DNA from: a virus
Lineage: Duplodnaviria; Caudoviricetes
Reading direction: 5' to 3' (one strand)
IMG/VR virus record: IMGVR_UViG_3300031998_000058
Location: 1-64,000 of that record
Length of the DNA: 64,000 nt
The notes below the pieces were generated by a model. That model had not been told where the DNA came from. It saw nothing but the letters and a program-made list of their open reading frames with translations, and ran no database searches. The position numbers were made by a program, and so were the translations under genes. This document shows, piece after piece, positions 20,555-45,852 of the stretch. Each line of letters begins with the position of its first letter. The first letter of the stretch is position 1.

Positions 20555-20634
20555 AAAAAAGGGCCAACGCACCCTGGAACTAACCAAAGTGAGTTGACCC
20601 TTGTTGGTCGTTGCTGTGTCCTTGTTGACAGAGC
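20555..20634 (-). promoter_or_regulatory. late-region hairpin-linker-terminator element, copy 1
   Basis: GCUCUGUC-AACAAG-GACACAGC, linker AACGACCAACAA, GGG-started long stem, U6. Confidence 0.85.
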
Positions 20635-20660
20635 CAAATATATAAACTATATCATATTGA

Positions 20661-20689
20661 ATTATAACATAACATAATGCAATTTGTAT
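20661..20689 (-). promoter_or_regulatory. putative extended -10 promoter (TATGTTATAAT; ATACAA at -35 position, 17-bp spacer)
   Basis: read on - strand; same layout as promoter at 28102-28130. Confidence 0.65.
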
Positions 20690-20698
20690 AGTGTTTAT

Positions 20699-21988
20699 TT
20701 ACATTGCTACGATTCTAGAACGATATGTTCCCCAATTTGATGCATTCATAAAGGCATTATATAAACTAGATGGCACAAATATACTTCCACTTTGTCCTGC
20801 TACTGCTCTATAACCACCGATAGGGGTGCTACTAAAAGCGTCGGTATTTTTCAATTCAGGAACCGCGGAAACTTCATTCAAATACAGAGACACCAAACGC
20901 CAGCAACTTTCAAACGCTCCCTTTCCGATGTATGCGCATTTTGGAAGGCTTAAAGTTGTGATTGAATGACAATTTGCAAAAGCCCACAGTTCAATAGTTG
21001 TGCACGCAGGAATACTAATGCTATTTAGATTTGTGCATCGTTCAAATGCACGGCTTCCTATAGACCCGCAAACCGAAAGGTTAATAGTTGTTAAAGAACT
21101 ACAATATTGAAACGCCTGGTCTCCAGTAACAATGCAGTTCGGAATGCTGATATTCGTTAAAGTGCGGCAATATTGAAATGCTGCTGAATCAACCGCTGTG
21201 CATGCGGGAAGGTTTACGCTTGTTAGGGCGTAGCACTCTGCAAAAGCCATGTATCCAATAGTTGTGCAGGCAGGAAAGCTTGCCGATTCCAAAGAAGAAC
21301 ATAGTTCAAACGCAGCTTCTCCGATGTCTGTACACACTGGTAGGTTAATTGATGCCAAGGAATAACATGCGTAAAACGCTTCACTCCCCACATTTAAACA
21401 CGATGGCAAAAACACTTCACTTAATCCAGAGCATCCCAAAAATGCCCCTGATCCGACCATCGAACATACTGGAAAAGATATGGATGTAAGGTTTGTGCAT
21501 GAACAGAAAGCTCTTTCCCCAATTTCTTGTACTCGTTCCATACTAATTGAAGTAAGACCGCTATTACGATAAACCGCATAATCTCTTACTTTCTTTAATG
21601 TATTTTCGGTCACGCTTCCAGATACCGAATATCCTCCCAGTAATACTTTCATTCCAGTACCACCTTCTGTCTGCCCGCTTGCTATTTTGAAGTCTGGATT
21701 AATATCATCCATCTCTGCTATGGCTATATGATTATCCCCAGCGTTTCCGTTTCCCATTCGCAAAACCAGAACATTCGCGGATGATTCCACGTTGAATAGT
21801 TCCCTGGTGCATTGTATGGTTCTCTCACCGTCAAATGGAATCGTAACTGCAAGTGTTCCATCTCCATTATTCGTTGCTACCGTAGCACGATAGAAAGAAA
21901 CATCATTTGAACATTCCTCTTCCAGTTTTGGCTTTATATAGTTTTTCCATAAGTTCTCAGCGAACTCGGTCATGTCTTGATTGTTCAT
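20699..21988 (-). CDS. BspA-type LRR protein A (429 aa) with shared N-terminal anchor domain
   Basis: start moved to MNNQDM (ATGA overlap with LRR-B stop); ~22-aa LRR units; shared C-cap. Confidence 0.85.
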   Translation of the reverse strand: MNNQDMTEFAENLWKNYIKPKLEEECSNDVSFYRATVATNNGDGTLAVTIPFDGERTIQCTRELFNVESSANVLVLRMGNGNAGDNHIAIAEMDDINPDFKIASGQTEGGTGMKVLLGGYSVSGSVTENTLKKVRDYAVYRNSGLTSISMERVQEIGERAFCSCTNLTSISFPVCSMVGSGAFLGCSGLSEVFLPSCLNVGSEAFYACYSLASINLPVCTDIGEAAFELCSSLESASFPACTTIGYMAFAECYALTSVNLPACTAVDSAAFQYCRTLTNISIPNCIVTGDQAFQYCSSLTTINLSVCGSIGSRAFERCTNLNSISIPACTTIELWAFANCHSITTLSLPKCAYIGKGAFESCWRLVSLYLNEVSAVPELKNTDAFSSTPIGGYRAVAGQSGSIFVPSSLYNAFMNASNWGTYRSRIVAM

Positions 21989-24203
21989 ACAGGTACGATC
22001 CTTTCTGATATCGAAGCCCAATTAGACGCAGCAACAAATGCACCGTATAAACTGGTCGGCACATATACTGATCCATATTGACCAGCAACATCGCTGTATC
22101 CCCCAATTGGTGTGGAGAAGAAAGCAGAGGTTCCAATTGATGTCACTTGCGATACTTTATCCAAGTATAGTGCAATCAAGTTGTAGCAACCGGAAAATAT
22201 GCGCTGACCCAGATAAGTGCATCTGGAAAGATACACCGTTGTCAGATTATGGCAAAGATAAAGCGCGTAAGCATCGGTCGATTGGCAGATTGGAAGGCTC
22301 ACTGTTGTAAGATTATCGCAAACGCCAAGCGCCGCGTTCCCCAGAAATTCACATGCTGGAAAATACACCGATGTTAAACCTGTTCTGTTAAACGCCCCAG
22401 CTCTGATTGCAGAGCATACTGGAAAAGAAACCACGCTTATGTTTGAACAGTTCGCGAATGCATTATCGCCTAAATATTCACACGTTGGGAAATTAGCAGA
22501 TTCCAAATTCATACATTCATCAAACGCATAACTTCCGATATAAGAACACGTAGGAAAATTAATTGATTCTAGTCCTGCGCATCCACGAAATGCGCTGTTT
22601 CCAATATAAGAACATACTGGGGAAGATGCTTGTGTTATCGAGCATAGATAAAAAGCCTCCGCTCCAATATATTCACATGATGGAAAATGTGCATACGACA
22701 AGCTTGTACACCCAAAAAATGCGCCCGCTTCAATGGATTTACATTTTGGAAAATAAGCGGACACCAATCTTGTGCAATCACGAAATGCACTGGTTCCAAT
22801 ATTCGAGCACAGTGGAAAAGATGCCACAGTTATACCACAATACCGAAAAGCCTGATTCGATATCGTAGTACACGCTGGGAAGTCTGCGGATTCTAAACTC
22901 TGGCACTGGAAAAATGCACCTGCGCCTATATAAGAGCATTGAGGAAATGAAGCATATCTTAACGTATTACAATATGTGAATGCGGTTGCCCCAACATATG
23001 AGCACATAGGAAAATTGGCCGATACCAGATCAAAACAACTCCAAAACGCAGAACTTCCGATATAAGAACACACAGGAAAATCAGCTGACGCCAATTCGGT
23101 GCATTGATAAAACGCACCTACTCCAATTGAAGAGCATCGTGGAAATGATATTGTATTTAAACCAAAACAAGACCGAAACGCATAAGCTCCAATTGTTTCA
23201 CATAAAGGGAAATTGACGGACGACAAACTCGTACACTGTGAAAAAGCACTACCGCCGATATAAGAGCACAGTGGAAATGAGACCTCCGTCAAGCTCGAAC
23301 AATATCCGAATGCATACGACCCAATATATTTGCACGAAGGAAAATGCGCAGATTCTAAGCCTGTGCAATTTGTAAATACCGTCTCACCAATATAAGAACA
23401 CATTGGAAATAGAACATTGGTTAATCTAGAACAATACCAAAATGCATAGTTCCCAATATAAGTACATTGTGGGAAAGATACCGTTTCCAAATTCGAACAC
23501 GATCCAAATGCTGTACTGCTAATATAAGTACACAACGGAAAGGAAGCCGTCGTCAGATTCGAACAAAATGCAAACGCGGTGTCTCCAATATGAGTGCACG
23601 ACGGAAAAGAGACCGTCTCCAAACCAATACATGACGCGAATGCCGCCCCGCCAACATTAGTGCATACGGGGAATAAGGCTGCTGTCAAATTCGAACAGTA
23701 TGCAAACGCAACACTACCGATGTTGGTCACTTGTGGCATACTAATCGAGAGTAGACCAGAATTCGAATACGCTGCATAAGAACGAATGCTCAATAATGTG
23801 CTTTCAGAAACCAGTCCAGATACCGAATATCCGCCAAGCAAAACTCTCAGTCCTATTTCTGTTTCAACAGGCTCTGCGGTTCCACCAAGCATCCATTCAT
23901 CATCATCAGTAGCTTTGGCAACGACCACATGGTTGTTTGCGACATTTCCATTTCCAAACCTACAGATTATAACCTGCTCTCCTTCGTTGACATCTTCAAG
24001 CGCCACTGTCCTGTTGATTGTTCTTTCTCCATCGAACGGTACTTTGACAGTCAAGGTTCCATCATCGTTCTTCGATACCACTGTAGCACGGTAATATGAA
24101 ACGTCATTCGTGAACTCCTGCTCTATCTTCGGCTTTATGTAGTTGTTCCATAAGTTCTCAGCGAACTCGGTCATGTCATGATTGTTCATACAGGTACGAT
24201 CCT
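21945..24203. repeat. 58-bp direct repeat (57/58 identical) spanning gene junctions: 21945-22002 and 24146-24203
   Basis: ttccataagttctcagcgaactcggtcatgtc[t/a]tgattgttcatacaggtacgatcct. Confidence 0.95.
21985..24189 (-). CDS. BspA-type LRR protein B (734 aa) with shared N-terminal anchor domain
   Basis: start moved to MNNHDM (ATGA overlap with LRR-C stop); roughly 25 LRR units. Confidence 0.85.
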   Translation of the reverse strand: MNNHDMTEFAENLWNNYIKPKIEQEFTNDVSYYRATVVSKNDDGTLTVKVPFDGERTINRTVALEDVNEGEQVIICRFGNGNVANNHVVVAKATDDDEWMLGGTAEPVETEIGLRVLLGGYSVSGLVSESTLLSIRSYAAYSNSGLLSISMPQVTNIGSVAFAYCSNLTAALFPVCTNVGGAAFASCIGLETVSFPSCTHIGDTAFAFCSNLTTASFPLCTYISSTAFGSCSNLETVSFPQCTYIGNYAFWYCSRLTNVLFPMCSYIGETVFTNCTGLESAHFPSCKYIGSYAFGYCSSLTEVSFPLCSYIGGSAFSQCTSLSSVNFPLCETIGAYAFRSCFGLNTISFPRCSSIGVGAFYQCTELASADFPVCSYIGSSAFWSCFDLVSANFPMCSYVGATAFTYCNTLRYASFPQCSYIGAGAFFQCQSLESADFPACTTISNQAFRYCGITVASFPLCSNIGTSAFRDCTRLVSAYFPKCKSIEAGAFFGCTSLSYAHFPSCEYIGAEAFYLCSITQASSPVCSYIGNSAFRGCAGLESINFPTCSYIGSYAFDECMNLESANFPTCEYLGDNAFANCSNISVVSFPVCSAIRAGAFNRTGLTSVYFPACEFLGNAALGVCDNLTTVSLPICQSTDAYALYLCHNLTTVYLSRCTYLGQRIFSGCYNLIALYLDKVSQVTSIGTSAFFSTPIGGYSDVAGQYGSVYVPTSLYGAFVAASNWASISERIVPV

Positions 24204-25237
24204 CGATGATATATTTGACCAGTTGTTTGCACTGCAAAAATTACTGTATAGACTTGCGGGTACAAACACACTTCCGTATCTACCAGCCGATCCGCTATAT
24301 CCTCCAATGGGAGTTGAATTAAAAGTGTCATATTGTAAAGTTGTTACTTGAGATACACTTTGCAAGTATAATGAAATCAAATTAGTGCATTTGTAAAACA
24401 CACTATATCCGATGCTGCTACATTTCTGAATTTCAGCTACAGATAAAAGTGTACAATTTTCAAATGCATGACTCTCAATACTTTCACAAACAGGCATGGA
24501 TATCTCTTTCAATGATACACAATTTGCGAAATCATAGTCGAACACATGCTTACACTTTGGCAAGTATACAGAGGCTAAATTCGAACAATTTTCAAACGTA
24601 TGCCCTCCAAGCCCAGAACATACTGGCAACGATACTTCACTAAGGTTTGTACAGAAACTAAACGCCCTACCAGCAACATTTTCACACGCAGGTAAGTGTA
24701 CCGTAGTTAAAGCTCTACAGTTTATGAATGCATCGTGCCTTACAGTCTCGCATAAGGGAAAATATATTGACGCTAGGCTGATGCAGCTTTGAAAAGCACC
24801 GCTTCCCACATAGGTACAAGCTGGAAAGCTGATATTTTCCAGGGAACTACATCCATTAAAAGCATACATGCTAATACTTGTGCATGCAGGAAAACTAATT
24901 GTTTTCAGACTGCTACATTGAGTAAAAGCCATCTCTCCTACCTTCATGCACTTAGGAAATAGAGCTGTCGATATTCGATAACAACTTCGAAAAGCACTGC
25001 TCTCAATTTCTGTACACTTAGACAAGCTAACATATGTCAAATAACTCTTTCCGCTAAATGAACTGTACTCAACGCTTGGTGCAGTGCCAGTCAGCATAAA
25101 TGTTGTATCTATTTCTATCGGTTCAGCTCCTCCGAGCGACCACGTTAATAGTTCTTCAGGCATGTTTTCTCCTTGTTGATTACACAGGAACAATCCTTTC
25201 TGATATCGAAACCCAATTAGACGCAGCAACAAATGCA
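21998..25237. repeat. 45-bp direct repeat (44/45) at 3' ends of LRR-B and LRR-D: 21998-22042 and 25193-25237
   Basis: atcctttctgatatcgaa[g/a]cccaattagacgcagcaacaaatgca. Confidence 0.95.
24186..25163 (-). CDS. BspA-type LRR protein C (325 aa), lacking the anchor domain
   Basis: start moved to MPEELL (AGGAG RBS); the longer track ORF overlaps LRR-D. Confidence 0.8.
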   Translation of the reverse strand: MPEELLTWSLGGAEPIEIDTTFMLTGTAPSVEYSSFSGKSYLTYVSLSKCTEIESSAFRSCYRISTALFPKCMKVGEMAFTQCSSLKTISFPACTSISMYAFNGCSSLENISFPACTYVGSGAFQSCISLASIYFPLCETVRHDAFINCRALTTVHLPACENVAGRAFSFCTNLSEVSLPVCSGLGGHTFENCSNLASVYLPKCKHVFDYDFANCVSLKEISMPVCESIESHAFENCTLLSVAEIQKCSSIGYSVFYKCTNLISLYLQSVSQVTTLQYDTFNSTPIGGYSGSAGRYGSVFVPASLYSNFCSANNWSNISSRIVPV

Positions 25238-26493
25238 TTGTATAAACTTGCTGGTACAAATACGCTTCCATATCTCCTGGCTTCCACACTGTATCCACCG
25301 ATAGGTGTGCTTGAAAATGTATTATTACTAATAACAGGAACTGTAGATACTTCATTCAGGTACAGTGAGATCAATCGAAAGCATGCGCTAAATGGCAAGG
25401 TTCCAAAACCAGTACAGACCGGAAGGCTGACAGTTTCCAGTGATGCACAATATACAAATGTGCTACTACCAATCGAGGTACAAGCCGGAAGATTAACAGA
25501 CCGTAAAGAACTACAGAAACCAAAGGCCATGCTTCCAACATATGTACATGCCGGAAAACTAATTGTTTCCACAGCAGAGCATGCATAAAACGCATGGCTT
25601 GAAATAGTCTTACAGGTAGGCAGGCTGATGTTTTCCAGAGCTATACACCACCCGAACGCATCACTCCCAATAACTGAACAAACAGGAAGACTGACAGTTT
25701 TTAGCTTTGTACAAGCCTCAAATGCACTCATCCCAACAGATGTACAATTTGGAATATTGACAGTTTCCAAGGAACTACATTTAGAAAATGCTTCTGATTC
25801 CACACGCGTACAGACCGGAAGGCTAAGAGTTGAAATGTTAATGCACCCTAAAAACGCACGAGTTCCAACAAAGGAACACGAAGGAAGATTTATTTCCGTA
25901 AATGAAGAGCAATCCACAAACGCATCATGGTCGATGTATGTACAGACTGGAAGACTTATTTCTGCAAGTGACAAGCACCATCTGAATGCGCTTGGCCCTA
26001 CTGACAAACATGCACTAATGTTCACTTTTGACAGAGAGTAGCATTGTGCAAACGCACGGGTTCCGATATGAGTGCATTGCGGAAGGTCTACTTCTGTTAA
26101 TGGGGTTGAATAAAACGCCACGCTTGGAACACTGGATGCATTTCCCGTTAAAAGAAATGGTGTGTCTGCCTGTATAGGTCCTGGTCCTGGAACAGACCCA
26201 TCACTATAGGTCATCATGGCAATATGGTTATCCGCAGCATTGCCGTTGCCATATCTCCAGACAATGACTTCTGAACCTTCTTCGATAGCATTCAGTTCCT
26301 TCGTGACTCTGATGGTCTTTTCACTGTCAAAAGGTGCTTTTACATTCAAAGTCCCGTTTCCATTATTAGCAATAACGACAGCACGGTAATAAGAAACCTT
26401 ATCTTTGGCAAAAGTTTCCCTGTACTTTGGCTTGATGTAATTATTCCAAAGGTTTTCGGCAAGTTCTGCCATTGCTGCGCTGTCGTTATCCAT
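25180..26493 (-). CDS. BspA-type LRR protein D (437 aa) with shared N-terminal anchor domain
   Basis: ELAENLWNNYIKPK..YYRAVV..NGNGTLNVKAPFD N-terminus; LRR units; C-cap. Confidence 0.85.
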   Translation of the reverse strand: MDNDSAAMAELAENLWNNYIKPKYRETFAKDKVSYYRAVVIANNGNGTLNVKAPFDSEKTIRVTKELNAIEEGSEVIVWRYGNGNAADNHIAMMTYSDGSVPGPGPIQADTPFLLTGNASSVPSVAFYSTPLTEVDLPQCTHIGTRAFAQCYSLSKVNISACLSVGPSAFRWCLSLAEISLPVCTYIDHDAFVDCSSFTEINLPSCSFVGTRAFLGCINISTLSLPVCTRVESEAFSKCSSLETVNIPNCTSVGMSAFEACTKLKTVSLPVCSVIGSDAFGWCIALENISLPTCKTISSHAFYACSAVETISFPACTYVGSMAFGFCSSLRSVNLPACTSIGSSTFVYCASLETVSLPVCTGFGTLPFSACFRLISLYLNEVSTVPVISNNTFSSTPIGGYSVEARRYGSVFVPASLYNAFVAASNWVSISERIVPV

Positions 26494-26510
26494 AAATATT
26501 GTATTCCCTT

Positions 26511-26789
26511 TTAATGTGTTTTCTGCTCTGCCAGATGATGACCGGTTTTTTCAATAACGGTCAATCGTGTTTCATGATCCGCTATCTTATCATCGTGCTC
26601 ATCTAACTGTTCCTGAAAGTCTTTATGCTCTGCCGCATTTTCCATTTCCATTTTTTTGATCTGTTCACTAACAGTGCTCAAGATTACCGTCAGTTCGGTC
26701 ATGGCCCTGGTGTTCTTGATCAATGGTGTTGAGACAGCAATAACAAAACCTACGATGGCTATTAGCACTGTAACTATGGTCCATTCCAT
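26511..26789 (-). CDS. holin-like membrane protein (N-terminal TM plus coiled coil)
   Basis: hydrophobic N-terminal helix, HDDKIADHETRLTVIE coiled-coil tail. Confidence 0.55.
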   Translation of the reverse strand: MEWTIVTVLIAIVGFVIAVSTPLIKNTRAMTELTVILSTVSEQIKKMEMENAAEHKDFQEQLDEHDDKIADHETRLTVIEKTGHHLAEQKTH

Positions 26790-26942
26790 TGCGTTTTTCC
26801 TCCCTTCTTTTGCAAATCAACTCAGTCAATCGGCATCTGTCGGGATGCGCCGTCATGTTCTGGTTTGTTTACGGGTTCCTCAGTTCTACAAGCTCGTGTA
26901 AGATTATCCCCCATGTCGCAATACACCATTGCCATCTTCTTC

Positions 26943-27962
26943 CTACACTCCTTTAATTTCTTCGACGTGTTTCAGCCACGCGTCTATTGTTATCGTCTCC
27001 ATCGGCATTCCTTCCGCTACTGCCCTGTTTCGGATTCCGTTGGAGATAGACATCTTCTCCTGTTCGGTCAACTTCTCCCACCGATGTTTATGTTTCGCAA
27101 AGTAATCTGCGAACCGGTTCTCTACTGCATCACGATAGTCCTGGTTATTAATGTCAATCCATTCCTTCTTGTTCATGGTATAGTAAGCATCAAATATCAT
27201 GAACGCCGCATAGAAGTTTGCTTTGTCATCGTGACCTCTCCTGCTGAATTCATCAACCAGGGCATCATTGGAATCCAGCATATTATTATAGGTCTTTAAG
27301 ATATAATCCTTGTCGTGCCTGCAAACGCTTTCCTCTCTCCACTTCCAGAGATAGAACGGTGTCTGGCAATACTTGGCTTCCTTCGTTAAGTTCTGTGCAA
27401 GGATGTTGAAGTAACTGTCCTCATGGATCGTCAATTTCGGGTTGAACCTGATATTCTTGTCCAGAAGGTATGAGCGCCTGTGGAACTTACCGTGAACAAA
27501 TGTCGAATCCATATCGTGATTCATATAGACTATCTGCTTCCTGTCCGGCGTTCTGGTCTCTTCGATGAAACAACTTGTGATTGTATCAAATCCACCGTCC
27601 TTGTTCATTTCATTGAAGATAATATACAGACCGCATACGTGGCAGTACATATCGTCTATATCACACCAGGTTATGTACTCTGCTTTAGCGGCATCCAGGC
27701 AAGAGTTTCTTGCTGCCGATACTCCCGCATGTTCCTGCCTAATCTGCTTGACTTCGAACGGATACTTCCTTGCTATAACGTATTCCCCTGTAGCATCAAG
27801 GTCTGTCGTGAACTCAAAGTCATGGGATTCTTCCCCGTCATGACAAATGATTACACCGATTTCGTTGAAATCCACGGACTGCTGAACAGCTATGGAATCA
27901 AGTAACGGGATAATAACTTCTGCCGGTTCCTTGTAGTGCGGAACTAAAATCTGCAATTTCAT
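26943..27962 (-). CDS. glycosyltransferase family 2, copy 2
   Basis: ILVPHY, ICHDG, HAGVSAARN, DxD motif CDIDD; clear paralog of 4317-5321. Confidence 0.9.
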   Translation of the reverse strand: MKLQILVPHYKEPAEVIIPLLDSIAVQQSVDFNEIGVIICHDGEESHDFEFTTDLDATGEYVIARKYPFEVKQIRQEHAGVSAARNSCLDAAKAEYITWCDIDDMYCHVCGLYIIFNEMNKDGGFDTITSCFIEETRTPDRKQIVYMNHDMDSTFVHGKFHRRSYLLDKNIRFNPKLTIHEDSYFNILAQNLTKEAKYCQTPFYLWKWREESVCRHDKDYILKTYNNMLDSNDALVDEFSRRGHDDKANFYAAFMIFDAYYTMNKKEWIDINNQDYRDAVENRFADYFAKHKHRWEKLTEQEKMSISNGIRNRAVAEGMPMETITIDAWLKHVEEIKGV

Positions 27963-27996
27963 ACTTTCTTTTCCCCCTGTGAATTAAATTGCAAAT

Positions 27997-28076
27997 AAAA
28001 AAGGGACAACACATCTCGCATTTCTACGAAATGTATTGACCCTTGTTGGTCGTTACCATGCCCTCGTCGGCATAGC
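27997..28076 (-). promoter_or_regulatory. late-region hairpin-linker-terminator element, copy 2
   Basis: GCUAUGCC-GACGAG-GGCAUGGU, linker AACGACCAACAA, GGG-started stem, U6. Confidence 0.85.
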
Positions 28077-28101
28077 CTGTATACACTTTTTATTATTATA
28101 T

Positions 28102-28130
28102 ATTATAGCATACTGGTCTTACAGTTGTAC
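28102..28130 (-). promoter_or_regulatory. putative extended -10 promoter (TATGCTATAAT; GTACAA at -35 position, 17-bp spacer)
   Basis: matches 20661-20689 layout. Confidence 0.65.
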
Positions 28131-28185
28131 ATAACAATATGGTTTGGACATTATCAAGCGTAATGACAACGTGAGCGTGTTGACG

Positions 28186-28534
28186 TTATCTGTCGCCCAC
28201 AATTGCCACATCTGAACACGGCATGATAAATCTATACATTCGTGTGCTACCCGGATACACAGAGGAGCCGGTAGTACTTGGAACGGTCTGGTTGCCAATA
28301 TAAGCTTTATCAGATACCAAAGGTGGTGAAGACAAGTATCCCGAAGTATAAACAATCACGTAATCCCCGACCTGAACATTAATCGGTAAATCACTTGCCG
28401 TATATTCTTCTGTAGTGTTATCAGGGTTAGTGACTATTATTGTTGTTATTAAGGCGAGTGCCTCAGAATTAGCACTCAACTCAAAGCTACTCGTACCCCC
28501 CCCCTAAAATTGTGGTTGAAGCATTAAAAATCAT
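28186..28534 (-). pseudogene. MIFN-leader fibre accessory gene frameshifted at a G9 tract (OFF; G8 gives 115 aa)
   Basis: AGGAGG RBS, ATG 28534, MIFNASTTIL-GGG-YE* stop at 28487; removing one G reads GGGTSSFELSANSEAL into ORF 28186-28479. Confidence 0.85.
28496..28504 (-). repeat. poly-G tract (G9)
   Basis: 9 C on + strand. Confidence 0.95.
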
Positions 28535-28603
28535 ATTGTTCCTCCTAACTGATTACTTAAAAATATTATCGTTGTTATAATGTATTGGCGTTAACATTAT
28601 TAA

Positions 28604-28996
28604 TTATTCTGAGCTTTCACGCTGTAAAATAAGTAAAACATCTGTAAGTCCCTGTTCAAAGGATATATCTATTGAAGAACCGTAAAAAACTGACTGTATG
28701 ACTGAAAAAGTTACTTGATACTCTTGTTCGTCGAAATCATCACCTTCCATTCTTAGAGGCACACTATACGTATCCTCCGCGTAGCTTGTTGCGATACCTA
28801 CATCGTTATAAAGTTCACCATTCAGGTATCCAATTCCATAAACCCACATAGGTTTATCTGTTAAAATCGTAACGCCCGGCAATTCCACAAATTTACCAGA
28901 ATAATCCTCTGATGTGAAATGTAAGACAACTAAATTAGGGCTGTCTATACCCCCCCCTTTTTTTTGAGTCACAGTTGTAGTCATATTGAATATCAT
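28604..28996 (-). CDS. MIFN-leader fibre accessory protein, in frame through an A8G8 tract
   Basis: MIFNMTTTVTQKKGGG; CAA AAA AAA GGG GGG GGT at ~28950-28966. Confidence 0.75.
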   Translation of the reverse strand: MIFNMTTTVTQKKGGGIDSPNLVVLHFTSEDYSGKFVELPGVTILTDKPMWVYGIGYLNGELYNDVGIATSYAEDTYSVPLRMEGDDFDEQEYQVTFSVIQSVFYGSSIDISFEQGLTDVLLILQRESSE

Positions 28997-29009
28997 ATAT
29001 GCCTCCTTA

Positions 29010-29297: not shown

Positions 29298-29358
29298 AGT
29301 TACCTCCTAAGAACCTGCCACGGTGTTACCCGTAGCAGGAAATAATCGTTTTGTGTTG

Positions 29359-31015: not shown

Positions 31016-31071
31016 TGCATTCCTCCTTTGTTAGAAATGTTTAATTGGCGTGTTGGTTGTATAATGTTGTT

Positions 31072-35322: not shown

Positions 35323-35344
35323 AGCTATCCCCTCCTTCCACTTC

Positions 35345-36049: not shown

Positions 36050-36069
36050 TTTGTTACTCCTGTTCTTGA

Positions 36070-37329: not shown

Positions 37330-37345
37330 TCCAACTCCTTCCCGA

Positions 37346-38083
37346 TTACTCGATCAGATCCTGTTTGTTCATCCCCTCAAGAATCGCCTTGAACCCAGGC
37401 TGCGGAGCAATCTTATTCATTTTCACGACGACATCCCTTGATACCTTTCTTTTGGTTTCGGGATTCATCCATGATTCGTAATAAACTTTGGCAACAACCT
37501 TTTTGCTGGCGTCACACAGATCGGTATATATGTTTACAATGTCATCTGAGCATTCGAGCATGCGTGTGAAGACCTGTTTATCAAGGACTTCACCGGGTTT
37601 ATAATTGACTCCGTACATCTCCCGTTCTTCATCTGTGAATCCGCCAAGAACGATCAACCATCTGTCTTTAATGAAGTCTCTCGTCATGGAATCAAGGATC
37701 CTCGACAGGTCGTTCTTCGGAACGCTGAAGTTTCCAACCTTTCCGGTGATTTTTCCATACTCGCCTCGTTCTCCAATGAGAAGCTCGTTCTCGTCTGCGA
37801 CCGGTGCCAGCCATAAAAAGTCAACTCTTTCCCTGTCCTGGCTCACAAAGATAGTCTGCGGAACTGTATTCACCTGTGTTTTGAGCTGATTCATCTGCTC
37901 CTGAAGCATGTTGTTCTGCTCTTGTGACATCTCGAACTGTTTCTGCAGCATCTCGTTCTGTTTCTTCAGTTCTTCCAATAGCGCATTCTGTTTCTGCTCA
38001 TCGGTTGTTGTAACCTCAGTTTTCGCCGGTTCCGCTTTTGCGGTCTGGTTAACTTCATTCTTCTTTGTTGATCTGGTTGCCAT
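37346..38083 (-). CDS. hypothetical head-region protein
   Basis: start moved to MATRSTKK (AAAGGAG RBS); coiled-coil N-half. Confidence 0.55.
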   Translation of the reverse strand: MATRSTKKNEVNQTAKAEPAKTEVTTTDEQKQNALLEELKKQNEMLQKQFEMSQEQNNMLQEQMNQLKTQVNTVPQTIFVSQDRERVDFLWLAPVADENELLIGERGEYGKITGKVGNFSVPKNDLSRILDSMTRDFIKDRWLIVLGGFTDEEREMYGVNYKPGEVLDKQVFTRMLECSDDIVNIYTDLCDASKKVVAKVYYESWMNPETKRKVSRDVVVKMNKIAPQPGFKAILEGMNKQDLIE

Positions 38084-38131
38084 AAGTGATATCTCCTTTC
38101 TATCCTCTTTTCTCGATATCATTATTCAAAC

Positions 38132-38176
38132 GGCTGTGGGGAGGGCTTGCACCTCCCCTGCGAAATATCTCCAGCC
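38132..38176 (-). promoter_or_regulatory. structured element 3' of capsid gene with T-arm-like hairpin
   Basis: GGCUG...CAGCC closing stem; GGGGAGG-UGCAAGC-CCUCCCC hairpin. Confidence 0.55.
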
Positions 38177-38202
38177 CTATTTCAGGAGGTCTATGAATAC
38201 GA

Positions 38203-39426
38203 TTAGATCGATGTCTGGCCTACCTTATCTGCGAATACAGCAGCAATCTCAAGCGCGACTGTCATGTTCGCACCGATCATGCCGTCACCGTTACGCATCG
38301 GGTCGAACTCGATGGTGATCGGAGTGACTGTGTTCATCGCAATCTTGAACGGCTTCCTTGCGTTGGAAGCGAGGATCCAGATTTTGTTTGTCGGAAGCAG
38401 TGTGGTTACTGCATCGTTCTGCGTTCCGGGAACCACTGCGTCTACGAGGGGCATCAGTTTGACGCCCATATATTTTCCGAGATATCCGCTGTTCACATAC
38501 TCCTGGCCGAGAAGAGTAGCGATAGCAGCATCCATATCAGCATTCGTGGTGCCAGTAGCTTCCTTCGGAAGGACCTTTGACAGAGCTACAAGTCCGCCCC
38601 ATGCAACAAGGTTTCCGATACCGGTCTGGTTAACAGCGCTCAGCTTGTTCGCCAGGGTTACCCAGTTAACAGAGCTGAACGTAGTCGTAAGACCACTGGG
38701 AATAAGGGTCGCATCTGCTGAAGCAGTTGTCAGAGCCGCAACGAACATGCCCATCGTCTTCGCGTAAAGTCCAGCAGTAAGATTCGCGAAGAAACGTCCG
38801 AAGTCCATATCGTTAGAGATCAGCTGCGTCCATTTGAATTTGAGCGCTGCGCTTCTCGGTTTCGGGTTCATGGTGATGTCCTGTGCGTACAGGGTGTTAT
38901 CCGGCACGTTCCTGATTGCGCCCCAGGAAGAATCCTGAAATACTACAATGTCATTTGATGTGACGGTAACAGAAGCAGTCTCACCAAATCCTACCGGAAT
39001 GACATCAGCAAACGGAGCAACCGCTTCGGAATAAACTCTCGGCATGATGGGGCTTTCAATCTCTTCATAGAGGCTCTGGAGCACTTTGAAGAAATCTCTG
39101 TTTGTGTAGAACTTCATGCTCTGGCGCTTGAAGTCTTCATAGGTTTCAGGAGCAGCAGCTCCAACCTGATTGCAGGCTACCTTGGCTGCATAAAGCAGAT
39201 GTTTCGCCTGGAACTTCTCGTTGTAGTCTCTGTAGTCTCCGTCAGAGATCATGGAGACACCCGATGTATCCGCGGTATGCAGAGCGTTGCACATAAGTTT
39301 TGCACCCTTACGGGAATGCTCTGTCATGAGGATACGTCCCATTGTGACCAGCTCGTCACGCTCCGGATCCTGGCTGTTGACAAGAAACAGTTTGCTTGAA
39401 ATGTTGTTAAAAGCTAATTTTGTCAT
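38203..39426 (-). CDS. major capsid protein
   Basis: 407 aa after protease/scaffold and decoration gene; followed by 3' structure. Confidence 0.75.
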   Translation of the reverse strand: MTKLAFNNISSKLFLVNSQDPERDELVTMGRILMTEHSRKGAKLMCNALHTADTSGVSMISDGDYRDYNEKFQAKHLLYAAKVACNQVGAAAPETYEDFKRQSMKFYTNRDFFKVLQSLYEEIESPIMPRVYSEAVAPFADVIPVGFGETASVTVTSNDIVVFQDSSWGAIRNVPDNTLYAQDITMNPKPRSAALKFKWTQLISNDMDFGRFFANLTAGLYAKTMGMFVAALTTASADATLIPSGLTTTFSSVNWVTLANKLSAVNQTGIGNLVAWGGLVALSKVLPKEATGTTNADMDAAIATLLGQEYVNSGYLGKYMGVKLMPLVDAVVPGTQNDAVTTLLPTNKIWILASNARKPFKIAMNTVTPITIEFDPMRNGDGMIGANMTVALEIAAVFADKVGQTSI

Positions 39427-39444
39427 TGTTCACACACTCCTTTC

Positions 39445-40026
39445 TCAGCTGCCCACAGACACTTTGCATGCCTTGACATCAATGTATGCGAAGGACTTGC
39501 GTGAGCCTTTGGTGAAGTATCCGCTGCCGACCTTCTCGAAGTAGATCGAACCTGCAGCTGTCGGTGCGCTGGCTTCCTTCTTCAGGAAACCGCCGTCGAT
39601 GCTGAAGTATGTGCCGGTCGCGTCGTCCGCGTTGCCTGCGCCAAAGCGATAAACATTGATGTTGTCGAATCTAACCAGAGTGAAGGTATCGGTATCGCCG
39701 GCGTTGATGCCAAGACCAAGGGTCTCATGGCCGATGTGATACCTGTTGTTTCCACCCTGGAGCATCTGCGACTCATAGGGGTTGCACGCATAGATCGGGG
39801 TGTCGATGTTCGCATCGGAAGTAGCGGCATTCATGATGTATGCGTTTTCGTTGTAAATTCCGGCAAAGCCTTCGCAGGGAAGCAGGCCGTTCGTCACACA
39901 AAGTGTTCCGGCACTGCAGTCAGCAGGATCATCACTGACCTTGTACAGACCTGTCACGTTGCAAAGCTTGTCCCATTCATTGTTTGAAACTCTCGCTTCA
40001 AAAGCGGTATTTGCTGTAAATGACAT
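39445..40026 (-). CDS. capsid decoration/cement protein
   Basis: 193 aa beta-rich ORF between scaffold and MCP (positional). Confidence 0.55.
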   Translation of the reverse strand: MSFTANTAFEARVSNNEWDKLCNVTGLYKVSDDPADCSAGTLCVTNGLLPCEGFAGIYNENAYIMNAATSDANIDTPIYACNPYESQMLQGGNNRYHIGHETLGLGINAGDTDTFTLVRFDNINVYRFGAGNADDATGTYFSIDGGFLKKEASAPTAAGSIYFEKVGSGYFTKGSRKSFAYIDVKACKVSVGS

Positions 40027-40044
40027 ATCTCATTACTCCTTTAC

Positions 40045-41490
40045 TCAAATTTTTTCAGCTTTCCATTTGGCCAGCAGTGATGCTACGTCATTCGCCTTGG
40101 CCGGATCTTCCTTGGCCATATCCCACAGATACTGGGACTGCGCTTTAGCAGCGTTTCTGGCAACGGCAGCCTTGTCGAACTCCATGACTGCAGCGGCGCA
40201 TTTCGCTAATACTGCATTGCAGACAGCTTCTTCTCCGCACCAGTCGCCTTCACCATTGATACACTCGGTATAAGCGCCGGCATCAACCGCGGCGTTGATA
40301 TCGTCAAGAATCGCTTCGTTGACTTTCTCTTCGCGGTTCGCGTTGAATTTAGCAAGTGCTTCTTTTGCTGCCGCTTTAGCTGCTTTCAGCCTGCGTCTCT
40401 TTTCCGCAGCCTCCATTGATTCAAGGCTTTCTTCTGCTGTGGTCAGCTTTTCCTTTGTAGCAGTAAGTTCGGTGTTTGCTTTTACGAGGTTCGCGCTCAG
40501 CATGGCGGTGAGCACGTCAGACTCAATATCAATGTGCTCTTCGCCAAACGCGAACTGCACATATAAATCGACATCCGTGATCTTCTTCGGATCAATCATC
40601 GCGTCCATGCTGTCCATCGTATAAGTAGCAGTCGATCCATCAGCAGCCATCAGACAAACATGGATGCCTGCGTCGTTCCGGCCTGCTGCAAGAACGGTGT
40701 ACCCCTCGAACTTAGGTGCTAAATCGGCAACCTGTTTCTTCGTGAATACCTGCATCGTTGATTCTCCTTTACGATTTAATTGTGTTTGCGGCTTTTTGGT
40801 TTCTGTGCCTTCATCCGGTTCTTTGTTCTCTCCCGGATCGACAGTGACGTTATCATCGTCTTCATCGTCATCGTCTTCGGCATTTATTAATGAAGCGGCC
40901 CGGAGCTTCAGCTCCTGGAACTCACTTTCAATCTCTTGTAACGCTTTGATATTTGCGCCTGGGATCGCAGGTGCTACACCCGATCCGAGAATAGTGACGC
41001 CGATTATGTTATAGTTGGTAAACACCTCTACATTCGGATCGTCTTGATCTATATGACCCTCTATAACCTCCGTCTCTACCGAAACTTCCATAACACCTTG
41101 TCGCTTGATATACTCCACTAATTCATGAGCGTAAAAATCAAACAAACGACCTTCTGCGACCAACCAGGTCTCACCATCTTCTTCTATAAGTTTCAAATCC
41201 TTTGGGTCGTCACTAATGGTTCCCACCACTTGTTCCAATCCAGGCTTGCTTATGAAGCTGTAGTATTTTTCTCCGTTGGCATCTATGCGCTCCTCCATAA
41301 GGTGGCCGTCACCAATGCGTCCGCCCGGAAAAGCGCATAATATTGGGCATCCAAGGGCAGACATGTAATGCTCGTCTAAGTTCTGGTAATTCCATTTATT
41401 CCTGTTAAGTCCAGAGCGCATCATTCTCAGCGAAACTCCAAACTCATACTTGTTTAGTTTTTGTGTGATTCTTAACTCCGCTATTGCCAT
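40045..41490 (-). CDS. prohead protease-scaffold fusion
   Basis: start MAIAELR; GLNRN, GDGH, EVSVE, GVTILG..VAPAIPGA motifs; acidic linker and helical C-terminus. Confidence 0.75.
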   Translation of the reverse strand: MAIAELRITQKLNKYEFGVSLRMMRSGLNRNKWNYQNLDEHYMSALGCPILCAFPGGRIGDGHLMEERIDANGEKYYSFISKPGLEQVVGTISDDPKDLKLIEEDGETWLVAEGRLFDFYAHELVEYIKRQGVMEVSVETEVIEGHIDQDDPNVEVFTNYNIIGVTILGSGVAPAIPGANIKALQEIESEFQELKLRAASLINAEDDDDEDDDNVTVDPGENKEPDEGTETKKPQTQLNRKGESTMQVFTKKQVADLAPKFEGYTVLAAGRNDAGIHVCLMAADGSTATYTMDSMDAMIDPKKITDVDLYVQFAFGEEHIDIESDVLTAMLSANLVKANTELTATKEKLTTAEESLESMEAAEKRRRLKAAKAAAKEALAKFNANREEKVNEAILDDINAAVDAGAYTECINGEGDWCGEEAVCNAVLAKCAAAVMEFDKAAVARNAAKAQSQYLWDMAKEDPAKANDVASLLAKWKAEKI

Positions 41491-41539
41491 ATGACTTGTG
41501 CCTTTCTGAATCTGTTCTCCTATCACTGGATAATTTTTC

Positions 41540-41616
41540 AAAAACAAAAGGACTCAGAAACACACCCTGTGTTTCTAAGCCCTTGTTGGCTATTCTGCCC
41601 ATCTCGTTATGAACAG
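41540..41616 (-). promoter_or_regulatory. late-region hairpin-linker-terminator element, copy 3
   Basis: CUGUUCAU-AACGAG-AUGGGCAG, linker AAUAGCCAACAA, 15-bp stem, UUUUGUUUUU. Confidence 0.85.
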
Positions 41617-41623
41617 TAATTAT

Positions 41624-41803
41624 TTAGTTTCTCTGTTTACCTCTTCCGCACGGCGGCGTTTCGAATTCTTTTTTTCTCGCTATCCTCACGTTCTCCTCGA
41701 ATATCAGTGTGCGATACGAAGTCCGTGTAATTCTGACGTCAGCGTGCTTGGCCAATATTTGGTTGATGACCGGCAAATCTTCTGCGCCTATGTATTCTCG
41801 CAT
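41624..41803 (-). CDS. small basic protein (59 aa, missed by ORF track)
   Basis: GAGGGG RBS; MREYIGAEDLPVINQILAKHADVRITRTSYRTLIFEENVRIARKKEFETPPCGRGKQRN*. Confidence 0.6.
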   Translation of the reverse strand: MREYIGAEDLPVINQILAKHADVRITRTSYRTLIFEENVRIARKKEFETPPCGRGKQRN

Positions 41804-41814
41804 TCATTGTCCCC

Positions 41815-43614
41815 TCAACCACCATAACTATCCTGATCTTTTTCCTGGCCTTCACTGGTAATCCCTTCGCTCTGCGGTCTCCCACCCTCATCTCTTGTGG
41901 GGTCTGCATTCGGATCCGTGATTTTTCCGTGTGGCGGCAATCCAGATCCTTCCGGTGATCCGCTGAACGATGTCACAAGCGGCAGTCTCTTATCCAGTAT
42001 TCCGCTTTCGTATATCGCATCGCTCCAGGCAATATCTTCAATGATGCTTCTGTCGTTCAGTGCATTCAGCATCATGTTAGCCGGCAGGATGCCGAGCGTC
42101 ATTTCTTTTCTCGCCTCTTCCCTGAGACGTTCATCTGATTCCAGGTCACCAAACATGTAAAATCTAAAGTCGTATTTAAGATTCAGGTTATCGATGACGC
42201 TGTTCATCATCCGTTCCATGCAACGATAAATTGTTTTGGAGAACTGCGACTCTATCTTCAGTGATATCTGTGCCAGACCAGACCTTGCATCTGATGTAGT
42301 GGGGATAATTCCTCCCAGTCCGGCTTTATTCATCGTGTCCTGGTATCCCTGAGATACAATGTTCGTAGCGCCTGGAGCTTCCGGAAGAGTCTCCATCCGC
42401 ATGTTCTTAAATGGTGCTGAGTATATTCCTATGCCACTGGTATTGTTCATGTTTAAGGTGTTGTACCACAAAGCCTCAAACATCATTCGTCCAGCATTAC
42501 TAAGCTTGTACTGATCCTCTGTATATGAATCCTTGTTCTCATAATACGGTATCTCACCGGTCAAAATGGCTATCAATGGATTCTGGAGGAGCTCAAGCTG
42601 AAGGCTTTCCAGCTGCGACAGCTGAAGCATATCAAGAAGCAGGCCCGTGAAAGGTGTTGCAACATCACGCGATACATCGTCTATCTCAAACGTAAAGACC
42701 TTATCTACCGGCAGCGTTACCCAATAGAACCATCTTCCATTCTGGCAATATACATCTGCATCCGGCTTACGCTCTGCAAGCTTTACTATGTTGATAGAAT
42801 TTCCGCCCGCATAGACTATTTTGCTTCCTACGCCACGCGGTATTTCTTCCAGACTCATATCATAATCTTCAAGATACGGCAGGAACAAATCGCCAAACTG
42901 TCTGGGATCCGTCCCGTATTGCGAAAAGTACATCATGTCAAAAGCCACAGTGTACTTGGATATATTGTTGTATCCTACTATCTTCGTCCAATCACTCGGA
43001 AGCTGCTGCAGGAATGCGTGATTAACCTTGTTATGAGCTTTATCAACACTGTATCTCGGCGTGTAAAAAACCTTTCCCTCTTGTAGCGACTGTCCGGCTA
43101 TCTGGTGTGTATAAGACTTGATATCAAATGTTGTGCGAAGCTTCTCTAACAGTTTCCACTCACGCCAGAAGTCGGGTTTTGCTGCATCTTCTTTCTCTGT
43201 GAGATACGGAGCTACATAGCTGTGATAGGTTAAAAGATTCTGATATACGACTCTCGTATGGAAGAATGGATACGACGGGCTTTCGAGCCAGTGTACGGCC
43301 TGTCTGATTTCTTTCTCGTTGGAATCAACATCGTCCAACATTGACTCCACTTGGCTTTTCTTGAACTTCCGCGCCATCGATGATATGTGTTTGGCGCGAC
43401 GATTCTGTGCATATGGATCCCGATTCCCAAGTGCTCCAGTTCCGGCCGCGATTCCAAAGGCCGCGACAAGCCGATCATACGGCATATCACCATATTGTTT
43501 GGACAGTTCTTGAACTCGCCTGGTTATTTCAGGAAAGCTCGCATACTTCAAACTGTTAAGTTCGGTCTCTACGTTAACCCTGTCCATCCTTTGCCTTTTC
43601 TTCCCGTAATGCAT
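41815..43614 (-). CDS. portal protein
   Basis: 599 aa between terminase and protease; C-terminal GGRP motif. Confidence 0.7.
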   Translation of the reverse strand: MHYGKKRQRMDRVNVETELNSLKYASFPEITRRVQELSKQYGDMPYDRLVAAFGIAAGTGALGNRDPYAQNRRAKHISSMARKFKKSQVESMLDDVDSNEKEIRQAVHWLESPSYPFFHTRVVYQNLLTYHSYVAPYLTEKEDAAKPDFWREWKLLEKLRTTFDIKSYTHQIAGQSLQEGKVFYTPRYSVDKAHNKVNHAFLQQLPSDWTKIVGYNNISKYTVAFDMMYFSQYGTDPRQFGDLFLPYLEDYDMSLEEIPRGVGSKIVYAGGNSINIVKLAERKPDADVYCQNGRWFYWVTLPVDKVFTFEIDDVSRDVATPFTGLLLDMLQLSQLESLQLELLQNPLIAILTGEIPYYENKDSYTEDQYKLSNAGRMMFEALWYNTLNMNNTSGIGIYSAPFKNMRMETLPEAPGATNIVSQGYQDTMNKAGLGGIIPTTSDARSGLAQISLKIESQFSKTIYRCMERMMNSVIDNLNLKYDFRFYMFGDLESDERLREEARKEMTLGILPANMMLNALNDRSIIEDIAWSDAIYESGILDKRLPLVTSFSGSPEGSGLPPHGKITDPNADPTRDEGGRPQSEGITSEGQEKDQDSYGG

Positions 43615-43918
43615 TCTCCAGACGGTCCACCATCAACACCATATCATTCGATATTTGTTCACGGTGCTTTGCTGTCTCTTCAGCAATAATCACCGTATTG
43701 CAGTCTAAGAGCCAACGCACATCATCATCTGTCAAATAGCTAAGTTCACTTTCGCTTATTGTATTGTAGCATTTATTATATTTCTTTTTGTATCCCTTTA
43801 CGTAAAATAAGATATATGTAGGGGTAATCCGATAAAATCTTTCGTCCTGAACCACCTCTATGTTCTCCATTGTGGTTTCAAGCGCGTACAATCGATACCT
43901 CACTTTTCTCTTACTCAT
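43574..43918 (-). CDS. hypothetical protein
   Basis: coupled to terminase and portal. Confidence 0.55.
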   Translation of the reverse strand: MSKRKVRYRLYALETTMENIEVVQDERFYRITPTYILFYVKGYKKKYNKCYNTISESELSYLTDDDVRWLLDCNTVIIAEETAKHREQISNDMVLMVDRLENALREEKAKDGQG

Positions 43919-45749
43919 AATGTCGCCCTCCCATTCTGCGAGTTATCATGCGTCCACTGCCGCCTCCTGCCGGCATGACTATTCCTCCATTCTGATATTT
44001 CTCAAGCTCCTTTGCCCAATCACTTGTGCTTTTTTGTTTTACTAAATACAGACGTTCCAGTTTCTGTGCAAAACGCAGAGCATACTTCAGGGCCGACCAG
44101 CTATCTCTCTGGATTGAAGGTGTGATCCTTCGTTCGCTTATTCCGTTCCCAGACGGTACTTGTTTCAGGTTCTGGATCTGACTGACGAGCTCCTTTGTTT
44201 TTTTGAACGGCTTTGCTATGGCCACATCCGCATAATCATCTTTAATCCGGTGATATTGTTTATATGTTTTAACGCCTTCTGCTTCATCCGATGTCAGTAA
44301 CTGTACATTGTGGTTCGCAAATTGAGTCTGTGCATTACGGACCATTTCACTGTCAGGATCCGTTGCTCCTGCTCCACCTGCTTTGATCGGGTAGATGATC
44401 GGAATTGCGCCTTCCAGTTCGTAAGGTACGTATTGATCATGGTCATAAATACACAAAGGATTCAGACCGTCTCCCAGGTCTTGCATCAAGCTTTCTATGA
44501 CCGCTTTTCCGTAAGCCCATCCGTCTACAACAATATATGTTTCTGATCCTTCGTAACAAAACCGATACCATATCTCTTTCAGCTTCCTTGCCTGAAGCAT
44601 CGCATCCATTGGCGCCCAATCATCCAGCCACACAAGCTGTTTCAAATACTTGTCTCTCTTAAACCAGTCTTTCTGCTTTGTACATTTCACCACTCCACAA
44701 GCGCATTTTGCATTCATGATCGAGTCTTCATACGAAACGTCATAAGCAACAATGTAAATGACGTCTTTCGGCTTTATCTTATTATCACGGTCTTTGCAAC
44801 AATGGTGTTCTTCCATCAGGAGCAGGTTGCGGCTTTCTGCCAGGTCTTCTTCCCGAATGATGGGATTCTCCGAGGATCCTGTGTATCGACTGCACATCTC
44901 ACGCATCCATTCGCTTGCTGTGGAATCCGCTTTACGCTGCATAGCCCATTCATAAGACCTCATTTGGGACAGTACGATTACTTCCCATGGTATGTCCATG
45001 ACAAATGCTTTTTCGTTTGGATTATGCGCAATCATCAGTTTTAAATGATTCCTGCGTGAAAGATATGCTGGATTCAACTTGCTTGTGGCCGAAGTGATGG
45101 AGTGCTGTTGAAACTTAATAAAGTTCGGATCCTCTTTCTTTCCTACTCTGTACTTGTTTCGAACAGCATACAAAACAACGGTTGAATACTCTTTATGGTC
45201 AAACGCAGGGTTTTCTTCCTGGGCATACTCTTCTGCAGTAACGTCATGGATATTTTTCCCTCGAACGGCATTGATTGTAATACGTGAGTTATATTGCGTA
45301 TATATCTCCCAGTTATCGTTAGCTTCATGTTTTATCTTGTAATGGCTGGCGATTACCGGGTAATCTCGTGTAAGATCAGCGAATGCCGTAGCAGCAAGTT
45401 CTGCCTGCTGTTTGTACGACGGGCCATAATAAGACGATTTAATCCCAAGCCACATCAAATTATGCGCAGATTTTTGAAAGATTTTGCATGTGGTCTTCGT
45501 GGCAGAACGACACCCTGTAATATCAACGTATTGATTTCTTTCAAACGCACGGATCATGACCCTTTGTATCAGTTCCCACTGGTACTGCGCTTCGTCACTT
45601 CTAAAGATGTCTCCCATTACGTCCGGATACCATCGGAAAAAGCTGATAAGAAAGAACCACGCATCTGTAATATAGTCATCATATTCTCGTTCCTGTACGT
45701 CTTTCTTGGCCTTTCCTCTTGTAGCACGCCATACTTTCTTTAAAGCCAT
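43911..45749 (-). CDS. terL: terminase large subunit
   Basis: Walker-A-like GCRSATKT, Walker-B region AEEYAQEE, nuclease AYDVS, VVDGWAYG, DSWSALKY. Confidence 0.85.
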   Translation of the reverse strand: MALKKVWRATRGKAKKDVQEREYDDYITDAWFFLISFFRWYPDVMGDIFRSDEAQYQWELIQRVMIRAFERNQYVDITGCRSATKTTCKIFQKSAHNLMWLGIKSSYYGPSYKQQAELAATAFADLTRDYPVIASHYKIKHEANDNWEIYTQYNSRITINAVRGKNIHDVTAEEYAQEENPAFDHKEYSTVVLYAVRNKYRVGKKEDPNFIKFQQHSITSATSKLNPAYLSRRNHLKLMIAHNPNEKAFVMDIPWEVIVLSQMRSYEWAMQRKADSTASEWMREMCSRYTGSSENPIIREEDLAESRNLLLMEEHHCCKDRDNKIKPKDVIYIVAYDVSYEDSIMNAKCACGVVKCTKQKDWFKRDKYLKQLVWLDDWAPMDAMLQARKLKEIWYRFCYEGSETYIVVDGWAYGKAVIESLMQDLGDGLNPLCIYDHDQYVPYELEGAIPIIYPIKAGGAGATDPDSEMVRNAQTQFANHNVQLLTSDEAEGVKTYKQYHRIKDDYADVAIAKPFKKTKELVSQIQNLKQVPSGNGISERRITPSIQRDSWSALKYALRFAQKLERLYLVKQKSTSDWAKELEKYQNGGIVMPAGGGSGRMITRRMGGRHYE

Positions 45750-45776
45750 TCTTGTTTCCTCCGAGTCTACTTACAC

Positions 45777-45852
45777 AAAAAGACTAACACGCTTTGGCAT
45801 TTCAAAGCGTATTAGCCCTTGTTGGCTGTTCCCGCACCCGCGTTGGTACGAG
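45777..45852 (-). promoter_or_regulatory. late-region hairpin-linker-terminator element, copy 4
   Basis: CUCGUACC-AACGCG-GGUGCGGG, linker AACAGCCAACAA, ~16-bp stem, U5. Confidence 0.85.

Follow-up and report, generated by a model that had tools for sequence, protein, structure and literature searches.

Introduction

The closest described counterparts of the element treated here are the RNA targets of ANTAR-domain antiterminators, such as EutV at the eut terminators of Enterococcus faecalis, NasR at nasF and AmiR at amiE. ANTAR proteins bind dual hairpins with hexaloops, the second of which (P2) overlaps a terminator, and each eut terminator possesses its own copy of the target (PMC3369931, PMC8934654). 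In both loops, A occupies position 1 and G position 4 (PMC3369931), the latter (G4) being the only base that EutV reads specifically (PMC8934654). The eut linkers between the two hairpins measure 5-12 nucleotides (nt), and linkers of 3 nt and 14 nt impaired induction by EutV (PMC3369931); the published search definition of ANTAR targets permits a variable linker. A related layout is found in a stretch of 64,000 nt of viral DNA (positions 1 to 64,000 of the IMG/VR virus record IMGVR_UViG_3300031998_000058; "the window" below), where an RNA element with two hexaloop hairpins recurs four times, each time overlapping the intrinsic terminator ahead of a block of late genes.

How virion genes are switched on in temperate phages of gut and rumen Firmicutes is largely unknown, and the textbook models, i.e. 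lambda Q and N and the RinA/ArpU-type activators, do not suit the lineage of this phage. The present analysis yields a compact, strongly covarying RNA family, a mechanistic hypothesis and a single candidate protein. The element is read as a two-state leader RNA: a local switch that operates terminator by terminator and opens when a factor reads the two loops through two equivalent sites. This reading appears fairly probable.

Four copies of the element

All four copies lie on the minus strand, with the 5' end of the first hairpin (P1) at 20634, 28076, 41616 and 45852. Each begins with P1, whose stem of 8 base pairs (bp) is capped by a loop of 6 nt; a long terminator hairpin that starts with G+C and a U-tract come after it. 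Positions and folds agree with the preliminary description of this DNA, which had reported four copies at identical spacing and a mismatch in the hairpin of copy 1. The copies are arranged as follows.

20548-20634, minus strand: copy 1; P1 20634-20613 (loop AACAAG, a single C-C mismatch), P2 20609-20596, terminator 20602-20559, U-tract

27990-28076, minus strand: copy 2; P1 28076-28055 (loop GACGAG), P2 28051-28038 (GACC/AACAAG/GGUC), terminator 28044-28001, U-tract

41540-41616, minus strand: copy 3; P1 41616-41595 (loop AACGAG), P2 41591-41578, terminator ~41588-41545, U-tract

45774-45852, minus strand: copy 4; P1 45852-45831 (loop AACGCG), linker 45830-45828, P2 45827-45814 (AGCC/AACAAG/GGCU); score 42.4 bits with the covariance model R2 described below

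~45820-45778, minus strand: terminator of copy 4; the stem begins within P2 and the U-tract follows

The 12 nt that follow P1 (AAYRRCCAACAA) had at first been taken for a plain linker. They hide the second hexaloop hairpin, P2, which shows covariation of its own. P1 is followed by a 3-nt linker (AAY), then by RRCC, the loop AACAAG and GGYY. The arms of P2 are GACC/GGUC in copies 1 and 2 and AGCC/GGCU in copies 3 and 4, which amounts to two compensatory pairs. In every copy, the 3' arm of this 4-bp hairpin forms the opening four bases of the intrinsic terminator stem.

The spacing 8+6+8 / 3 / 4+6+4 is invariant in all four copies. Their alignment has 97.9% of cells paired and compensatory changes in 9 of 12 pairs. 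The folding Z-scores range from -4.6 to -6.2, and none of 200 shuffles folds equally well. Exact copies of the 10-mer CCAACAAGGG number four in the window and four in the entire virus record of 72,320 bases; all are intergenic and on the minus strand, and about 0.12 occurrences are expected by arithmetic (2 x 64000 / 4^10). Besides these four, the late region contains no other strong minus-strand terminators.

Relatives and covariation

Among GenBank phages, only one distant relative was found, MT835520.1 from human faeces. Further relatives were gathered via their terminase and portal proteins in IMG/VR and JGI metagenomes, and the element-bearing phage loci come from rumen and human gut. The word CCAACAAGGG is absent from these IMG/VR and JGI relatives. 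Inspection by eye shows, in the loci L020, L021, L022 and L024, an element of this architecture but of another sequence in the gap between a small open reading frame (ORF) and the head gene; further copies occur in that gap in L045, L046, L048, L049 and L023.

Covariance modelling had been suggested together with the preliminary description. The first model (R1), built from the four copies, was too specific, recovered one relative and was replaced by a second (R2), built from 19 copies. With R2, 24 copies were detected in 18 loci from rumen and human gut, which represent 17 distinct phages, and nothing else matched below E = 0.5. In the alignment fitted to the model (A6, 24 copies), 95.8% of cells are paired, with compensatory changes in all 8 P1 pairs and in 3 of the 4 P2 pairs (11/12). 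No shuffle attains the observed covariation score, and slid controls are 33-41% paired. The alignment made with MAFFT only (A5), which is not structure-fitted, gives a similar picture with 92.0% paired. Because the P2 pairs covary in A6 as well as in A5, P2 is a selected structure and not an accident of the terminator sequence. The initial claim of a covarying RNA element within the intrinsic terminators before the late units is borne out.

The element could not be placed in a known RNA family, as had been reported at the outset. Rfam 15 gives no match at gathering score across the 64 kb and none at E ≤ 5 around the four copies; around the relatives' copies, it returns only noise of the small nucleolar RNA type, at E ≤ 10. 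A 17-mer of copies 1 and 2 is found in IMG/VR only in unrelated coding DNA. A degenerate pattern of the full architecture has no match in IMG/VR and six scattered, chance-level matches in GTDB genomes. In the literature, no description of such an element in a phage was found.

An AT-rich box resembling TATAAT stands ahead of P1 in many of the 24 copies and ends 2-5 nt 5' of it, in the window for example at 20636-20648, 28078-28086, 41618-41628 and 45855-45866 (minus strand); the relatives are alike. At offset 2, at least 5 of 6 TATAAT positions match in 6 of the 24 copies. A promoter at this box would initiate transcription within P1; the box could alternatively be an AU-rich single-stranded platform or a cleavage site.

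Matched loops

Across the family, the loops follow the rule R-A-N-N-R-G, mostly with a C-G closing pair. The P1 loop (L1) and the P2 loop (L2) of one site are identical at 4.75 of 6 positions, compared with 3.37 of 6 for pairs from different phages. This likeness within sites was reached by none of 20000 permutations, also when only one site per source was used, in a test that is inflated by kinship among the phages. L021 and G004 carry GAGUGG in both loops, whereas their close relative L054 carries GAGCGG in both; the loops of one site have thus changed jointly among close relatives. Of the two loops, L2 is the one more closely tied to the phage: the four window copies all have AACAAG there, G005 and L055 both have AAAGAG, and L049 and L053 both have AUAGG.

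Kissing between the two loops was considered and rejected: inspected by eye, most loops lack self-complementarity, which is confined to those with CUAG and CCGG.

Identical loops could share one complement. The matched loops might accordingly be paired by a trans-acting RNA in a T-box-like manner, the candidate being a tRNA-shaped (transfer RNA-shaped) RNA of the phage. Such an arrangement is highly improbable. Complements of CCAACAAGGG with up to two mismatches number 53 in the window against 44 expected, the exact ones being the elements themselves, and neither the loop nor the linker has a complement at ~54059-54815 or elsewhere in the phage's own DNA. A small-RNA switch, one of the functions initially proposed, thus found no complement in a search that covered the phage's own DNA only.

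Energetics and the default state

The terminator fold beats an enforced P1+P2 fold by 4.8-9.5 kcal/mol, and P2 alone amounts to -3.9 to -4.3 kcal/mol. In a constrained fold with P2 formed, the residual hairpin is truncated and ends several nt short of the U-tract. According to the established model of intrinsic termination, a hairpin that falls short of the U-tract is termination-incompetent. Since the terminator fold is favoured by this amount and P2 is weak, termination is predicted to be the default state, and read-through would require a stabiliser of P2.

Comparison with protein-dependent terminator-specific switches

The likeness to ANTAR targets extends over several traits. All four copies and the 24-copy set contain two tandem hairpins of at least 3 bp, each with a hexaloop. 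The short second hairpin shares bases with the 5' arm of the intrinsic terminator, so that the two folds are mutually exclusive. As in the eut cluster, several terminators of one gene cluster have each their own copy, and loop identity and hairpin spacing are kept while the stems covary.

There are differences as well. The loops follow R-A-N-N-R-G with a C-G closing pair and not the A1/G4 rule, which is broken by A4 in L2 of all four window copies and in L1 of copy 1, and by GAGUGG, GAGCGG and AAACGG in both loops of relatives. All four copies have a linker of 3 nt, and relatives one of 2-3 nt, as opposed to 5-12 nt in eut. P1 has 8 bp here, and the targets are phage virion genes instead of a catabolic operon. 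In a six-frame search at E ≤ 10, the ANTAR domain (PF03861) has no match in the window's record and five relatives (phage records only), and ANTAR is not among the best 25 of 57 Pfam families listed for 55 early proteins. By analogy, the layout is that of an ANTAR-type dual-hexaloop antiterminator. The element is nonetheless not assigned to the ANTAR family, because the A1/G4 rule fails, no ANTAR domain was found in the six phage records and Rfam gives no match.

The same RNA switch could be opened by a protein of the host, either an ANTAR-domain regulator or another RNA-binding antiterminator, which would couple late expression to the physiology of the host. In its favour, the hairpins are laid out as in ANTAR targets (PMC3369931), some loops do obey A1/G4 (AACGAG; AAAGAG in G001 and L055), and no recognisable RNA-binding domain was found in the phage. 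On the other hand, G4 is replaced by A, U or C in both loops of whole lineages (AACAAG as L2, GAGUGG, AAACGG), closely related phages differ in their loop motifs, and a 3-nt linker is of the length that impairs EutV induction (PMC3369931). A host factor is therefore considered quite unlikely. If it were nevertheless to act here, late development of the phage would be linked to host signalling.

A second group of terminator-specific switches comprises the ribonucleic antiterminator (RAT) sites of BglG, SacY and LicT. Here too, a protein-stabilised hairpin overlaps the 5' arm of the terminator, and the action is local. RAT, however, consists of one imperfect hairpin of ~29 nt that is recognised by a dimer of the CAT domain in proteins with PRD sensor domains, whereas the present element has two separate hexaloop hairpins. 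No CAT/PRD protein is among the best 25 of the 57 families listed.

Genomic setting and promoters

The virus is a siphovirus-like, temperate phage, and its record encodes an integrase, an S24 repressor, Cro/CI-type helix-turn-helix (HTH) proteins, RecT, YqaJ, DnaB and RusA. The minus strand carries the late genes, among them those of the large terminase (a weak match), the portal protein and a tape-measure protein of 2088 amino acids (aa). The gene contexts of copies 1 to 4 (tail module, GT2, head/capsid and terminase, respectively) are those first described. Copy 1 is the leader of the tail module, which ends in the tape-measure gene, and copy 2 the leader of a unit with a GT2 glycosyltransferase and a BspA-type leucine-rich-repeat array. 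Copy 3, the position of which is kept in all relatives, lies 7 nt past the stop of a 59-aa ORF that is itself located 3' of the portal gene; it precedes a 500-aa YonD-like head-morphogenesis gene and the capsid genes. Copy 4 follows a conserved 285-aa gene and precedes that of the large terminase. In relatives, the homologues of the 500-aa and 407-aa proteins have precomputed Pfam matches to YonD_N and YonB of Bacillus phage SPbeta.

Two promoter-like sites precede copies of the element.

20661-20690, minus strand: promoter-like site of copy 1; TATACA, 18-nt spacer, extended -10 TGtTATAAT; the -10 ends 27 nt before P1

28102-28131, minus strand: promoter-like site of copy 2; TGTACA, 18-nt spacer, extended -10 TGcTATAAT; the -10 ends 26 nt before P1

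Both calls are consensus matches only, at 10 of 12 positions and with the TG present. No extended -10 promoter-like site was found near copies 3 and 4.

This setting bears on a further possibility, a processive antitermination site at which RNA alone or with a factor modifies RNA polymerase. The nut sites of lambda N and the put RNA of HK022 are likewise phage RNA signals that let RNA polymerase pass terminators, and N is small and basic. They act processively, near promoters and remote from the terminators that they suppress, whereas the present element overlaps its own terminator. The adjacent hairpin pair does recall put RNA, the arginine-rich N peptides have a parallel in the basic tail of the small protein discussed below, and copies 1 and 2 directly follow promoter-like sites. 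A processive system would, however, have no need of one overlapping element per terminator, copies 3 and 4 are without a nearby promoter, and the covariation of P2 with the terminator points to direct competition. Moreover, lambda boxB has a GNRA-like pentaloop on a stem of 5 bp, and boxA is a linear motif; here, hexaloops stand on an 8-bp stem, and no boxA-like conserved linear motif was found outside P2. An N/nut-like or put-like site is thus very unlikely. Because each terminator has its own element overlapping its stem, the evidence argues for a local switch in competition with the terminator. Of the boxB/boxA-like antiterminator site that had been envisaged initially, the blocking of the terminator fold survives as the most plausible reading, while the likeness to boxA and boxB is abandoned.

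The terminators might also be unregulated and partial, setting transcript stoichiometry constitutively. P1 and P2 would then serve RNA stability or processing, for example as a 5' hairpin that protects the messenger RNA (mRNA) after cleavage at the AU-rich box. Such an arrangement would be in line with the box that stands 2-5 nt before P1 in many copies, with the stabilisation of Firmicute mRNAs by 5' hairpins, and with the fact that the terminators part gene blocks required in different amounts. It leaves unexplained, however, why the 5' arm of P2 covaries with the first bases of the terminator and why the two loops are alike. In addition, a terminator before the capsid genes would cut the output of the genes that are needed most, and the strong promoters of copies 1 and 2 would be wasted. 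A purely constitutive role is hence unlikely.

Proposed mechanism

From the structure of the RNA and its setting, we infer the following course of events for the two-state leader RNA. By default, the long hairpin and the U-tract would form, and RNA polymerase would halt ahead of the virion genes. Copies 1 and 2 appear to lie just behind strong sigma-A-type promoters; without such a stop, a temperate phage would leave these open in the lysogen. A trans-acting factor with two equivalent sites, possibly a dimer, would grip the hexaloops of P1 and P2 and thereby stabilise the weak 4-bp P2. As P2 holds the first four bases of the 5' arm of the terminator, the bottom of the stem beside the U-tract would stay open, and transcription would go on. 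With one switch per terminator, the action would be local, not processive, and it may serve the timing of late expression. It would resemble that of EutV, NasR and AmiR, but with other loop rules and without an ANTAR domain in the phage.

The candidate factor

The likeliest factor would be a conserved basic protein of 50-60 residues encoded directly 3' of the portal gene, which is represented in the window by the following ORF.

41624-41803, minus strand: 59-aa ORF between the portal gene and copy 3; candidate trans-acting factor

This ORF after the portal gene is the sole small gene that travels with the element. It is found in all 18 element-bearing phage loci (17 by R2 and L049 by eye), and L012 and L013 lack both the ORF and the element. 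The gene table of the contig of P0032 likewise shows no small ORF and no portal-head gap able to hold the element. Immediately before the late operon, the phages carry unrelated genes, and no conserved late regulator or other conserved small gene is present there. The family comprises 41 protein clusters, all of 49-73 aa, and the isoelectric point lies above 8.8 in 14 of 17 members. The 59-aa protein is predicted to form a helix and a beta-hairpin with a disordered basic tail (predicted local distance difference test, pLDDT, 81.5). Since the gene of the factor would itself stand behind a gated terminator, the system could act as a positive-feedback commitment switch.

Several points weigh against this proposal. 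L012 and L013 belong to a single clade that lies within the element-bearing phages; because of this and of the adjacency of the two features, their co-loss counts as a single event that one deletion can explain without a functional link. The small protein has no match in Pfam. A sequence search against solved structures retrieves only designed alpha/beta proteins, the best Foldseek match in the PDB has E = 1.6, the VIA-wide best Z is 3.1, and the Atlas offers only "hypothetical"; a recognisable RNA-binding fold or family is not among these results. The conserved residues are mostly hydrophobic or acidic. If the factor is encoded behind a gated terminator, its first expression needs leak-through. 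The two sites of L046 differ at loop positions 4-5 (ACUAG and ACCRG), which means that either the reader of the loops tolerates variation or the matching of the loops has another cause. Finally, the early regions of most relatives are covered only in part.

The ORF is linked to the RNA by co-occurrence, and its role as the factor is put forward tentatively, with doubt outweighing confidence. The more far-reaching idea of a new class of phage RNA-binding antiterminator is possible, though well short of probable. Such a protein of ~55 residues (helix, beta-hairpin and basic tail), with none of the ANTAR, CAT and N-type domains, would act as a dimer that reads the two matched hexaloops and keeps a 4-bp hairpin closed against the terminator, with its own gene in the feedback loop outlined above and a loop specificity that drifts from phage to phage. 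If the mini-protein is indeed the factor, no smaller terminator-specific antiterminator would be known. The phages would then also offer naturally orthogonal RNA/protein pairs, with AACAAG, GAGUGG, AAACGG and AAAGAG loops, that could be used as genetic parts.

Further observations on the late region

The 285-aa protein upstream of copy 4 (45873-46730, minus strand) is helical and conserved. It belongs to no Pfam family and has only 32 related clusters, all metagenomic; it may be the small terminase subunit. In G004, the homologue of its gene is located after the portal gene. In the close relatives L045 (853-901), L046 (1719-1766) and L047 (702-749), the 285-aa-type gene is preceded by the first gated terminator, whereas the corresponding terminator of this phage (45808-45855) stands between that gene and the terminase gene; G001 and the contig of P0008 have no copy of the element at that position. 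Because its placement around the 285-aa-type gene differs among these phages, the position of the element evidently shifts between relatives. L048 (9850-10000) has a distinct leader ahead of a 304-aa gene, which is not the dual-hexaloop element; there, a long G+C-rich hairpin that encloses a U-run comes after a promoter with the consensus TTGACA.

Just 3' of its major capsid gene (~38135-38165, minus strand), the window has a short hairpin that is rich in G+C and carries the loop UGCAA(G/C)Y. The same hairpin, which has no U-tract, recurs after the capsid gene in L045 (10440-10465), L046 (11020-11045) and L049 (18700-18725). The fold of the whole post-capsid gap in the window has z = -1.2, which is not significant.

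The late operon has its convergent end at a bidirectional terminator (AGCGGGGC...GCCCCGCT), located at 2250-2273 and flanked by runs of A and T. At 47208-48653 (minus strand), the N-domain of a dATP/dGTP diphosphohydrolase is fused to two HTH domains; the gene adjoins a thymidylate-synthase-like gene, and this pairing hints at a modified-nucleotide pathway.

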